Made by a program: the position numbers and the translations under genes
NCBI RefSeq assembly: GCF_053078305.1
Contig: NZ_CP166879.1
Length of the DNA: 64,000 nt
Direction: 5' to 3' (one strand)
Shown: in pieces, positions 8,275-48,177 of the stretch
How positions within the stretch are numbered: position 1 is the first letter of the stretch
Layout: every line of letters starts with the position of its first letter
The notes under the pieces: generated by a model
What the model was told of the DNA's origin: nothing
The model's database searches: none
What the model saw: only the letters and a program-made list of their open reading frames with translations

Positions 8275-8898
8275 ATGGAATGGATTGCCGATCCGTCTAT
8301 CTGGGCCGGGTTAATCACGCTGATTGTGATCGAACTGGTCCTCGGCATTGATAATCTGGTCTTTATTGCCATCCTCGCCGAAAAACTACCGCCGAAGCAG
8401 CGCGACCGCGCACGGGTTACCGGGCTGTTGCTGGCGATGTTAATGCGCCTGTTACTGCTGGCGTCAATCTCCTGGCTGGTCACCCTGACTCAACCGCTGT
8501 TCAGCTTCCGCTCGTTTACCTTTAGCGCCCGCGACTTAATCATGCTGTTTGGTGGTTTCTTCTTGTTGTTCAAAGCCACGATGGAGCTGAACGAACGGCT
8601 GGAAGGGAAAGACAGCAATAACCCCACGCAACGCAAAGGTGCGAAGTTCTGGGGGGTGGTGACACAAATTGTGGTACTGGACGCCATCTTCTCACTCGAC
8701 TCGGTGATTACAGCCGTCGGGATGGTCGACCATTTACTGGTCATGATGGCCGCCGTGGTTATCGCTATCAGCCTGATGTTGATGGCCAGCAAGCCGTTAA
8801 CGCAATTTGTTAACAGTCACCCGACCATCGTTATTCTCTGCTTAAGCTTCCTGTTGATGATTGGCTTTAGCCTGGTGGCAGAAGGTTTCGGCTTCGTG
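8275..8898 (+). pseudogene. yegH: yegH (TerC/CorC-family membrane protein) truncated after codon 208 by the prophage left end
   Basis: [30 protein letters not shown]...LVAEGFGFV matches the N-terminal 208 of about 527 aa of K-12 YegH. The reading frame hits TAA at 8899-8901, supplied by phage-end sequence. Confidence 0.9.
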
Positions 8899-9069
8899 TA
8901 ACCAGGTGAATCATTTGATACCAACGAGGGTTTTAGTGAAAGGAGGTGAAATCACCTGTAAGATACTGAAATAAAACAGGTGATACCAATGCGAGCGCGG
9001 AAAGTCTATTTGATACCGATTGTGCAATAATTAGTCGTTTATTCTAAAATCGGCAACACTTTTGATACT
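8897..9069 (+). repeat. prophage left end with putative transposase-binding repeats (L1-L3-like)
   Basis: The TGATAC(C/T) core (mostly TTTGATACC) occurs in direct orientation at 8914-8922, 8981-8987, 9009-9017 and 9061-9069. The first lies 17 nt from the TG at 8897. The arrangement parallels the Mu attL L1/L2/L3 sites. Confidence 0.6.
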
Positions 9070-9168
9070 ACGGATTGACGCTTAAAATGGTTTTAAAAAG
9101 GCTTAAAACGCTTTTCTCCAGATTGTCTTTAAAGGAGTGTACCACAGCACAAAATTTGCACCACTCCC

Positions 9169-9729
9169 TTACGCACTAGCCTTTTTCTGGGTTACATTTA
9201 AATGATTAACCTTAGCTTCACATTCTTCATAAATCTCTCTTGCTTCAGAATCTGACATATCCTTTAACCTTAAAGCAAGCTCTCGGCGAAAACCGCTAAG
9301 TGCATGTAATTCCTGAATATTATCATCCAATAAGATCGTTAGAAAATCAGCCCCCTTTCTGCCAAGCAATCGGGCTAATTCTAGTTGCTCATCGGTGCTG
9401 AGAGAGGACAGAATTGCCGTAATTGTTTGATTTGCATTATCTAAATTACCTGCATCGACAGTTGAACAACATGGAGTGCTTGGGGTATTTTCATCAGAAC
9501 CAAAAGCTAACCAATTTAAACTCACGTGCTCTTTATTTGATATAAGGCAAGCCATTTTAAAAGAGGGTTCTGTGCCTTTGTGTATGTAGTTATTTAAGGT
9601 TGATACAGGAACCCCCCAATCCTTTGCTGCTGCCCTTACACTCCGCGTCCCGATCAGGCTTAGTAAGCGGGCTTTAAAACTTTCTTTTCCTGGTGCATCA
9701 AAAGAAAAATTTCCATTCTCTTCAATCAT
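9169..9729 (-). CDS. prophage repressor (Mu c-like position, HTH protein)
   Basis: 186-aa ORF divergent from ner at the left end. The N-terminal segment RSVRAAAKDWGVPVSTLNNYIHKG looks like a helix-turn-helix. Position is equivalent to Mu Repc. Confidence 0.72.
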   Translation of the reverse strand: MIEENGNFSFDAPGKESFKARLLSLIGTRSVRAAAKDWGVPVSTLNNYIHKGTEPSFKMACLISNKEHVSLNWLAFGSDENTPSTPCCSTVDAGNLDNANQTITAILSSLSTDEQLELARLLGRKGADFLTILLDDNIQELHALSGFRRELALRLKDMSDSEAREIYEECEAKVNHLNVTQKKASA

Positions 9730-9851
9730 TTTTTCTTTTCCTCATAACATATTGAAATAAAAAGAGATAACCAAATAAAACCCACTTCAGCCCACGGAGA
9801 CAAAAGAAAAAGCTATTTTTGCTTTACATGGACTACATTTGGATCAATACT

Positions 9852-9887
9852 TGTATCAAACTTGATAACAAAATTTAGTTATCAAAT
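9852..9887. promoter_or_regulatory. candidate operator / early-promoter region between repressor and ner
   Basis: Contains the dyad TATCAA-AC-TTGATA (9854-9867) plus GTTATCAAA (9878-9886), inside the 185-bp AT-rich divergent intergenic region. The motif resembles the end repeats. Confidence 0.45.
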
Positions 9888-9914
9888 TTCGTAACTTTTT
9901 AGGATAGATGAATC

Positions 9915-10145
9915 ATGGCGAGAAATGAAGTTAAGCCTGATTGGCATCCTCAAAGAATCTTGGGGGAAGTCAGAGCCAGAGAAGGAAGTATGAGGGCGCT
10001 GGCCCGTAAAGCTGGCGTAGGTCAGAACAACCTGTACAACGCGGTATACCGTCATGTTCCCAAGTATGAGGGGATTATTGCGGAATGCCTAGGTGTGCCA
10101 CCCGAGGAGATTTGGCCCAGCCGCTACATTCGTAAGGTCGCGTAA
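9915..10145 (+). CDS. ner: Ner-like DNA-binding early regulator
   Basis: 76 aa. DWHPQRILGEVRAREGSMRALARKAGV...PEEIWPSRY parallels Mu Ner (DWHRADVIAGLKKR...PEVIWPSRY). It is the first rightward gene. Confidence 0.88.
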   Translation: MARNEVKPDWHPQRILGEVRAREGSMRALARKAGVGQNNLYNAVYRHVPKYEGIIAECLGVPPEEIWPSRYIRKVA

Positions 10146-10147
10146 TT

Positions 10148-46721: not shown

Positions 46722-46757
46722 CCCAGCATAGTTCCAGCTATGCTGGGTTTCCCTTTT
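46722..46757 (+). terminator. strong rho-independent-terminator-like hairpin, plus-strand orientation
   Basis: Perfect 10-bp stem CCCAGCATAG / CTATGCTGGG (46722-46731 and 46738-46747), 6-nt loop, followed by TTTCCCTTTT. Confidence 0.6.
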
Positions 46758-46951
46758 ATGTAGTATCCTGTTGATTTGAAACATACTACATATACGCGCG
46801 ATCCTACCTTCACTGTATAAAAAGTCAATAAAATGATCATTTTATGATCGTTTTCACCACCTAACTCTTCGTTTCTTTAAGTAAATAATCACCGCCCTGA
46901 ATCATTGTTGATGACTTTTAAATCTATTTGTTGTATCAATTAAACAAATCG

Positions 46952-46976
46952 AATCGATCGTTTTTGTCGATCGATT
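46952..46976. promoter_or_regulatory. GATC-containing inverted repeat upstream of com (candidate Dam-sensitive regulatory site)
   Basis: AATCGATCG-TTTTTGT-CGATCGATT with 9-bp perfect arms, each holding a GATC (46956-46959 and 46969-46972). It lies 44 bp upstream of the com ATG. Confidence 0.4.
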
Positions 46977-47019
46977 GCATGAGAAAGGCATCAACAACAA
47001 AGCAGGAGGTTATGCGGCC

Positions 47020-47220
47020 ATGTATCGAAACATACGGTGCCGACACTGCAATAAGCTACTGGCACGGGCCAGTTTCAGTTATCTGGAAGTAAAATGTCCG
47101 CGCTGTAAAACCCTCAATCAAATCACATCTCCGAGCGCCACAGAGCACCCCACATACACAAGGAAATCCTGTCGTGGGGAACAGAAAGCAAGTCACATCC
47201 CGTATCATCAGCACGCCTGA
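47020..47220 (+). CDS. com: Com-like zinc-finger translational activator
   Basis: ORF-track 46975-47220. ATG at 47020 is 10 nt after [41 protein letters not shown]...EHPT parallels Mu Com (IRCKNCNKLLFKADSFDHIEIRCPRCKRHIIM...EHPT). Confidence 0.82.
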
Positions 47221-47911
47221 ACTTATTCGCTATAACGACAATATCGTTGGTTATGGCTCCCGTGAGTTGCGGGTTGAGACAATAAGTTGCTGGCTGGCCA
47301 GACTGGTTATCGTCAATAAACATTACAGCCACCGTTTCGTAAATAATTCCTACCTTCATCTGGGTATATTTTCAGAACGGGAACTTGTTGGCGTAATGCA
47401 ATGGGGTTACGCCCTTAACCCAAACAGTGGTGCACGCGTCGTAACGGGTACGCAGAACCGAGAATATATGGAGCTTAACCGGCTATGGATGCATGACTGT
47501 ATGCCGAGAAACTCCGAATCAAGGGCAATCAGTTACGCGCTCAAGCTAATCAGGCAGCTTTATCCGCAGGTACAGTGGGTTCAGTCGTTTGCAGATGAGC
47601 GTTGTGGCTGTCTTGGTGTCGTGTATCAGGCAAGCAATTTTGATTATGTAGGCAGCCATGAATCAACATTCTATGAACTTGATGGCGAGTGGTATCACGA
47701 GATTTGCAGGAGTGCCATTAAACGAGGCGGACAACGAGGTGAACATCTGAGGGCTAATATCGACAGAGCCAGTGTGCATAAGTTCCGACAGTTTCGTTAC
47801 ATCCGGTTTCTGAACAAGAGGGCCAGAAAACGCCTCAACACAAAGCTATTCAAAGTCCAGCCTTACCCAAAACCACAAACAGTTAAAACTGGTTTGAAAG
47901 AGAGTGAATGA
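47174..47911 (+). CDS. mom: Mom-like DNA (adenine) modification protein
   Basis: 245 aa with a GTG start inside the 3' end of com, as in the Mu com-mom overlap. It is the last gene before the right end. Motifs NKHYSHR...ELNRLW...[19 protein letters not shown] fit the Mom-type acyltransferase-like family as recalled. Confidence 0.65.
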
Positions 47912-47957
47912 GCGCTTAAAAACTCATTCTAAAACTCAAAAGAAAAGCGCCGATTTA

Positions 47958-48039
47958 GTATCAAATAAGTTGCGTATCGGCGTTTTTCAGCGGTATCAAA
48001 TGAAATGCAAATCGGTATCAAAAAAATCGCCGCGCTATA
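47958..48039 (+). repeat. prophage right end with putative transposase-binding repeats (R1-R3-like)
   Basis: (G)GTATCAAA, the reverse complement of the left-end TTTGATAC(C), occurs at 47958-47965, 47992-48000 and 48014-48022. The last copy ends 17 nt before the junction with ftnB, mirroring the left end. Confidence 0.6.
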
Positions 48040-48177
48040 CTGGGCGCGAAGGAAAGTGGCGGTGCCGTTCAGACTCTGTTCAGAACACCAGTTACTCAGG
48101 TGAAGGTAGAGATTGGATGCGTAAAACTCGCGGTTCATTTGAGAGTTGAGTTTGAGAAGCATTCCAGCGGTTGCCAT
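48040..48177 (-). pseudogene. ftnB: ftnB (ferritin-like protein, yecI) truncated after codon 46 by the prophage right end
   Basis: The minus strand from 48177 reads [46 protein letters not shown], matching the recalled K-12 FtnB N-terminus. The ORF continues into phage sequence (YSAAIFL...) instead of AQSNVTQ. Confidence 0.88.

Follow-up and report, generated by a model that had tools for sequence, protein, structure and literature searches.

In enterohaemorrhagic Escherichia coli (EHEC), a crossover between two resident prophages that lie in opposite orientation, and thus act as long inverted repeats, can invert the chromosomal segment between them; pairs of lambdoid prophages have been involved in other O157 inversions. 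Transposable phage Mu can produce an inversion on its own, by intramolecular replicative transposition (Shapiro-type), which leaves a replica at either end of the inverted segment, the two in opposite orientation and each flanked by old sequence on one side and by target sequence on the other. In Campylobacter jejuni, reversible intragenomic inversions occur between resident sequences of the Mu-like prophage CampMu, with segments of up to 590 kb and with phenotypes that include phage resistance, a colonisation defect and phage production (PMC1950947). Here we describe a Mu-like prophage of the Sp18 type that joins truncated yegH and truncated ftnB, two genes that are distant from each other in E. 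coli K-12, in a 64,000-nucleotide stretch of contig NZ_CP166879.1 (RefSeq assembly GCF_053078305.1; hereafter, the window, which denotes this whole stretch). The prophage fits a hybrid that combines the left part of one phage, inserted in yegH (phage A), with the right end of another, inserted in ftnB (phage B). We assign a probability of about 60% to the interpretation that the joint reflects a real inversion by homologous recombination between these two prophages, possibly with both isomers present.

The arrangement proposed for this locus likewise involves two resident prophages in opposite orientation that act as long inverted repeats. Unlike in the lambdoid cases of EHEC, however, the repeats would be two heteroimmune Mu-type transposable phages, the segment between them, of about 150 kb, is confined to one replichore and leaves the terminus outside, and the products would be hybrids in which the immunity and transposase modules are swapped against the late-gene ends. 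The case differs from CampMu in both genus and phage, and is known from sequence alone, whereas phenotype and reversibility have been shown for CampMu. A classical Mu inversion would have the same final topology and the same split target duplication but would require replicas, whereas the copies considered here are unlike over their left 8.5 kb, repressor included. Among phages, the closest described family members are Sp18 of E. coli O157:H7 Sakai and Phi804-3 of strain FRIK804, which have strain-specific insertion sites (PMC7430833, PMC2669165). They share with the window prophage the size of about 39 kb, the c-ner-A-B gene order, the late genes, the gin segment and com/mom, whereas the window copy has its own rare alleles of MuA and NanS-p and is flanked by parts of two different genes.

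The prophage occupies positions 8897-48039 (plus strand; 39,143 bp), and all its major open reading frames (ORFs) are open. On the left, the switch from host to phage falls at 8896/8897, where the window reads GGCTTCG/TGTAACCAGG (here and below, the slash marks the junction), and comparison with intact loci, including that of K-12, gives GGCTTCGT/CATTCC at the same point of uninterrupted yegH. The yegH 5' fragment (8275-8901, plus strand) comprises 208 codons, of which the last is completed, and followed by a TAA stop, with bases supplied by the phage; the same truncation after codon 208 had been read in a first-pass annotation of this DNA, made from the letters alone. On the right, the phage gives way to the host at 48039/48040 (...CGCCGCGCTATA/CTGGGCGCG), and the intact ftnB locus reads GTGC/CTGGGCG at this site. 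The ftnB 5' fragment (48040-48177, minus strand) encodes FtnB residues 1-46 and runs on into the right end of the phage, forming an 82-aa fusion ORF (47929-48177) that ends in phage-derived residues, again in line with the first reading. In an exact-protein look-up, this fusion was found on a single public contig, JPQG01000004.1 of GCA_000736735.1. Each gene is cut by a prophage insertion, and thus, the earlier claim of two inactivated host genes holds: yegH and ftnB are both lost through the insertions, however the prophages are linked, and no phenotype is implied beyond these losses.

In K-12 MG1655, both ftnB (1986925-1987428) and yegH (2137902-2139485) are on the plus strand, and a distance of 151,461 bp separates the breakpoints, close to the 150 kb estimated in the first reading. 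The polarities given there are borne out as well: the wca-wza-yegH side of the window has the K-12 plus polarity and the ftnB-araFGH-otsBA-uspC-flhDC-motAB-cheAW-tar side the K-12 minus polarity. With flanks of opposite K-12 polarity, the joint is oriented as the end point of an inversion would be. The guanine-cytosine (GC) skew flips sign across the joint, as expected for a recent true inversion and for a chimera alike. Neither of the two junctions nor the adjacency of the two loci is present in any of the 5,426 complete E. coli genomes searched. In relatives with the same AraG allele, yecR-yecJ-ftnB-araF is uninterrupted, and in those with the same WcaC allele, wza-yegH-asmA-dcd is uninterrupted. 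Given these intact loci and the absence of the adjacency from the complete genomes, an ancestral origin of this gene order is ruled out; the same-allele relatives do not include the prophage-free genomes already arranged in this order that the first reading had named as a finding that would speak against a rearrangement.

The termini of the phage are well defined. More than 25 independent copies share TGTAACCAGG... at the left end and ...CGCCGCGCTATA at the right end beside unrelated host DNA, and such constant ends with differing flanks both fix the termini and indicate quasi-random transposition, not site-specific integration. In three insertions that could be compared with empty sites, the target duplication is 4 bp long, namely, CTGG in ftnB, TTAC in csiR and ACTA in ydeE, the latter two being simple insertions compared with the empty sites of K-12 (L055 757-770; L057, L060, L061). 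The left terminus begins with TG and the right terminus ends with TA (...GCGCTATA; window 8893-8900 and 48032-48043). Phage Mu generates a 5-bp target duplication and has 5'-TG...CA-3' termini, so that the window phage, with a duplication of 4 bp and TA instead of CA at the right terminus, is not Mu sensu stricto. The 5-bp duplication expected in the first-pass annotation is, accordingly, wrong for the Sp18-type family; the flanking pentamers listed there, CTTCG on the left and CTGGG on the right, are as found. The relevant 4-bp flanks are TTCG at yegH (8893-8896, adjoining the left end), the predicted target duplication of that insertion, and CTGG at ftnB (48040-48043), which is also the host flank of the left end of phage B on JPQG01000010.1. 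In a literature search, we found no statement on a 4-bp duplication or a TA right terminus in Sp18-type phages.

By its sequence, the window matches E. coli strain 48 (GCA_000736735.1), a Shiga toxin-producing E. coli (STEC) from roe deer that carries subAB2-3 (PMC5323612). The draft genome of this strain is apparently based on PacBio reads, judging from homopolymer indels at contig ends, although PMC5323612 states PacBio for five sister strains only. The Wzc, WcaC, baseplate J and Gp45 alleles of the window are too common to single out strain 48 contigs. Through a rare GemA allele, we identified JPQG01000010.1 (contig 10; 105,900 bp), which contains yecJ, the 3' part of ftnB and then TGTAACCAGG..., and stops inside the phage. 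The second prophage postulated at the other half of ftnB in the first reading thus exists. When mapped onto the intact reference locus (L001), the host sequence of contig 10 ends at 3004 and the right flank of the window starts at 3001, so that CTGG is present at both junctions; this shared duplication indicates that a single insertion in ftnB was once bounded by the left end on contig 10 and the right end in the window.

The window copy, which is the same as the copy on contig 3 of the strain 48 draft, is phage A, and the contig 10 copy is phage B. The two share an identical left terminus of 88 nt (8897-8984, plus strand) and diverge from nucleotide 89 onwards. Their immunity regions do not align, their repressors (186 aa in phage A, encoded at 9169-9729 on the minus strand, and 176 aa in phage B) are 38% identical, and their MuA proteins are 95.5% identical. 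At the DNA level, identity is 96.9% over 10279-13730, 92.7% over 13944-15222 and lower still up to 17423. From 17423 to 26300 (plus strand; L055 8561-17435), by contrast with these values, there are no substitutions at all, so that a substrate for a crossover is at hand; the only differences are 7 single-base homopolymer indels in contig 10, which are typical of the end of a low-coverage PacBio contig. Position 26300 is the equivalent of the end of contig 10, and the identity probably extends further to the right. Other members of the family differ from the window phage by 1-4% over the same genes. Phages A and B are otherwise 3-8% divergent, yet their late regions are free of substitutions, including alleles found in no other strain (F protein). 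This pattern suggests that, in addition to the one crossover that an inversion requires, the prophages recently underwent gene conversion or exchanged sequence while resident in the same cell. Judged by these contigs, strain 48 is a double lysogen of two heteroimmune relatives with an identical late region; the differing immunity would have allowed the second lysogenisation.

Under the scenario we favor, phage A would have transposed into yegH, with the 4-bp duplication TTCG, and phage B, independently, into ftnB, with the 4-bp duplication CTGG. On the plus strand (K-12 sense) of the ancestral chromosome, phage A would then read from left to right and phage B from right to left, so that the two would form inverted repeats separated by 151 kb (K-12 scale). 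If a reciprocal, RecA-type crossover took place within the identical late region (from about 17.4 kb), the segment that stretches from the ftnB 3' part through wza to the yegH 5' part would be inverted. One product would be the hybrid seen in the window, in which the yegH 5' part is followed by the left end of A and the right end of B precedes the ftnB 5' part; the other, expected product would be a hybrid that runs from the ftnB 3' part and the left end of B to the right end of A and the yegH 3' part. The junction of the yegH 5' part with the left end of A and that of the right end of B with the ftnB 5' part are both in the window (the latter also on contig 4, JPQG01000004.1), and the junction of yecJ and the ftnB 3' part with the left end of B is on contig 10. 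Recombination between two resident copies had been the second choice in the first-pass annotation and fits these observations, the copies being two different, heteroimmune phages. The sequenced culture may hold both isomers.

Each host-phage junction was found in two assemblies, and therefore, the junctions themselves are real. The linkage between them is a different matter, and several observations weigh against the inversion at this point. The connection from the left to the right end crosses an identical repeat of at least 8.9 kb, and probably more than 20 kb. Both B-side contigs of the older draft break inside the phage, at the window equivalents of 26300 (contig 10) and 40164; the latter is the point at which contig 4 (383,853 bp), which matches window 40164-58177 except for one indel, stops. 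Contig 3 (1,424,899 bp), which carries the yegH 5' part with the left end of A, shares 100% identity with the window over the stretch that begins 8.8 kb upstream of the start and reaches 29372, and runs 1.17 Mb beyond the phage; in the protein index, however, three products of contig 4 are missing from it, namely, the 82-aa FtnB' fusion, the NanS-p call of 672 aa and the AraG allele of the window. The older draft thus seems to connect the left end of A to something other than the ftnB 5' part, presumably to the right end of A followed by the yegH 3' part. Of the reciprocal joint, only the end that links the ftnB 3' part to the left end of B has been seen, along with the complementary left end of A and right end of B in the window. 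The other reciprocal junction, from the phage right end into the yegH 3' part (CGCCGCGCTATA-N(0-8)-TCATTCCGAAAGGCTA), where the partner of the TTCG duplication is expected (TTCG-TCATTCC), was not found in viral, species-representative and metagenome collections, none of which holds strain 48; neither was the left end of the phage found among the species-representative genomes.

The breaks in the older draft and the markers missing from contig 3 would also fit A and B as simple insertions in yegH and ftnB, respectively, with no inversion, and an assembler that had switched copies within the identical late region, creating an artificial prophage with the left end of A and the right end of B. We consider such a mis-join unlikely but deserving of serious weight, given that the repeat is free of substitutions and cannot be phased over this length, and that the source chromosome is not in the RefSeq set of complete genomes that we searched. 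Several lines of evidence argue against it. A closed 5,941,328-bp chromosome of the strain, most likely the source of the window, encodes an A-type MuA (YBJ05266.1), a rare allele otherwise seen on contig 3, and a NanS-p (YBJ05313.1) otherwise seen only on contig 4; the two are 47 genes apart, as many as the window prophage contains, and hence both appear to belong to one prophage with the full gene complement between them. Present-day long reads are usually long enough to bridge such a repeat. The route that the older draft takes through the unspanned repeat is arbitrary and no better supported; it is no proof of an error in the window but does show the linkage to be assembly-dependent. Absence from the protein index counts for little because two window genes that are expected on the 5,941,328-bp chromosome are missing from it. 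These belong to the stretch 38529-41206, where the Gp45 allele is on no recorded contig above 1 Mb and the Gp48 product is unrecorded, with the neighboring genes recorded on the 5,941,328-bp chromosome; either this stretch is annotated differently there or the window derives from a further assembly of strain 48. The same chromosome has two accessions for the head-morphogenesis protein (YBJ05057.1 and YBJ05292.1), and from the accession numbers only, we infer that it carries two prophage copies about 235 genes apart.

Intramolecular replicative transposition, the explanation named first in the first-pass annotation, would have a single prophage in yegH attack ftnB, producing the inversion and an oppositely oriented replica in one step. 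The topology fits this mechanism, MuA and MuB are intact, the identical late regions would follow directly, and the ftnB duplication would be split between the right end of one copy and the left end of the other, although this last feature is predicted by recombination as well and does not discriminate between the two. The left arms, however, are not those of replicas: the copies differ over the left 8.5 kb, where identity is well below 100%, including the immunity region with its 38% identical repressors and MuA with its 95.5%, and the divergence starts 89 nt from the left terminus. For the left arm to be swapped later, the crossover would have to fall within the terminal 88 nt, this confinement being imposed by the lack of homology between an incoming phage and ftnB. 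The comparison of the left arms largely refutes replicative transposition, which we regard as very improbable. The notion that the order was ancestral or due to a different element, for instance an insertion sequence (IS) or an rrn operon, with the prophage inserted at an existing joint, was considered because the host flanks are, at best, 99.0-99.5% identical to any complete genome, but is hardly credible, with no support found for it, both host genes cut exactly at the phage termini, the missing ftnB half located at another phage left end with the matching duplication, and the relatives and complete genomes arranged as described above.

Beyond the junctions, the window prophage, recognized as Mu-like in the first reading, has the anatomy of a Mu-type transposable phage: MuA and MuB are next to c and ner at the left end, and the late region is Mu-like. 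The repressor gene is followed, on the plus strand, by ner (9912-10145; PF13693), the rare allele of the MuA transposase (10148-12235; 695 aa; PF02316, PF09299) and the gene for its AAA+ partner MuB (12307-13239; 310 aa; PF09077). Pfam searches on the called genes identified the early and middle genes Gam, GemA and Mor and, in the late region, a Mu-like set of head and tail genes that includes the Mu portal, F, protease and gpT. An invertible tail-fibre segment together with the invertase gene gin occupies 41731-43738 (plus strand), with inverted arms of 182 nt at 41731-41912 and 42934-43115 and gin itself at 43178-43738 (plus strand; PF00239). The tail-fibre segment (41731-43115) is flipped in two related prophages (L051, L052), and this opposite orientation implies that the gin switch of the Sp18-type family is evidently active. 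Between gin and com/mom, at 43829-46405 (plus strand), there is a gene for a NanS-p-type sialate O-acetylesterase followed by a DUF1378 gene and a DUF826 gene (PF03629, PF20350, PF07125, PF05696). The NanS-p-type gene alone (SASA plus DUF6645; 43829-45886, plus strand) is represented by a rare allele. The three-gene module is present in most relatives of the window phage, with allelic variants of 672-685 aa; in lambdoid prophages, those encoding Stx among them, NanS-p, DUF1378 and DUF826 genes are typical late-region components. Closest to the right end is the gene mom (47174-47911, plus strand; PF25680, annotation).

The left host flank (35-7617, minus strand) contains the colanic acid genes wcaD, wcaC, wcaB, wcaA, wzc, wzb and wza, identified as ORFs with annotated homologues and Pfam domains. 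The right host flank (48974-63296) consists of araF, araG, araH, otsB, otsA and uspC (minus strand), flhD, flhC, motA, motB, cheA, cheW and tar, with the row as a whole listed on the plus strand and all genes intact. No tRNA genes were detected within the 64-kb window. Dozens of metagenome and Logan contigs stop 0-2 bases from codon 208 in an intact yegH (L003-L012). We rejected these as carriers of the cut gene because they run into intact sequence (GTCAT) and represent a selection artefact: a contig that stops at codon 208 yields a partial product identical to the truncated protein and is retrieved for that reason only. Searching for a truncated protein by exact match can thus be misleading.

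Relatives of the prophage with 96-98% identity are present in about 226 of the 5,426 complete E. coli genomes, where Sp18-type polylysogeny occurs, a single genome having as many as 4 places with such a phage. When IMG/VR was scanned with a 40-mer private to phage A, only relatives with 90-94% identity came up. A related Mu-like prophage is inserted in citF in E. coli strain 117 from reindeer (MPGS01000002.1; L018), a sister STEC that carries subAB2-3 and comes from the same laboratory, which implies that Sp18-type phages circulate in this group of wild-ruminant STEC. In E. coli strain 142 (NZ_CP028609.1; L058 2037-2070, L059 175-215), a copy of the phage has non-matching flanks without a common 4 bp, with the left end in a truncated ISEc8 transposase gene and the right end in a truncated polyketide-synthase-like gene; this may be a second rearranged copy.

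Inversion between inverted prophage copies is an ordinary, well-documented rearrangement, from which the one described here departs modestly, with heteroimmune Mu-type phages as the repeats and module-swapped hybrids as the products. In pathogenic E. coli, a main source of large rearrangements is prophage pairs that act as portable inverted repeats, and the present case adds a clean example in which two different transposable phages of the Mu type serve as the repeats. It also bears on how such loci are read: mismatched prophage flanks need not be the footprint of transposition, and a comparison of the left arms separates recombination from replicative transposition. Assemblies of Sp18-type polylysogens can be wrong or ambiguous across the common late region, and inversions called there need spanning reads. 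Hybrid prophages that arise by such recombination shuffle immunity modules and accessory genes between phages within one host. It appears doubtful that the two assemblies of strain 48 capture two states of a reversible, prophage-bounded inversion. If they do, segments of roughly 150-170 kb that include the colanic-acid, O-antigen and his regions would flip, and each flip would re-pair the immunity and transposase modules with the other right ends, so that two prophages could give rise to four phage genotypes per culture.

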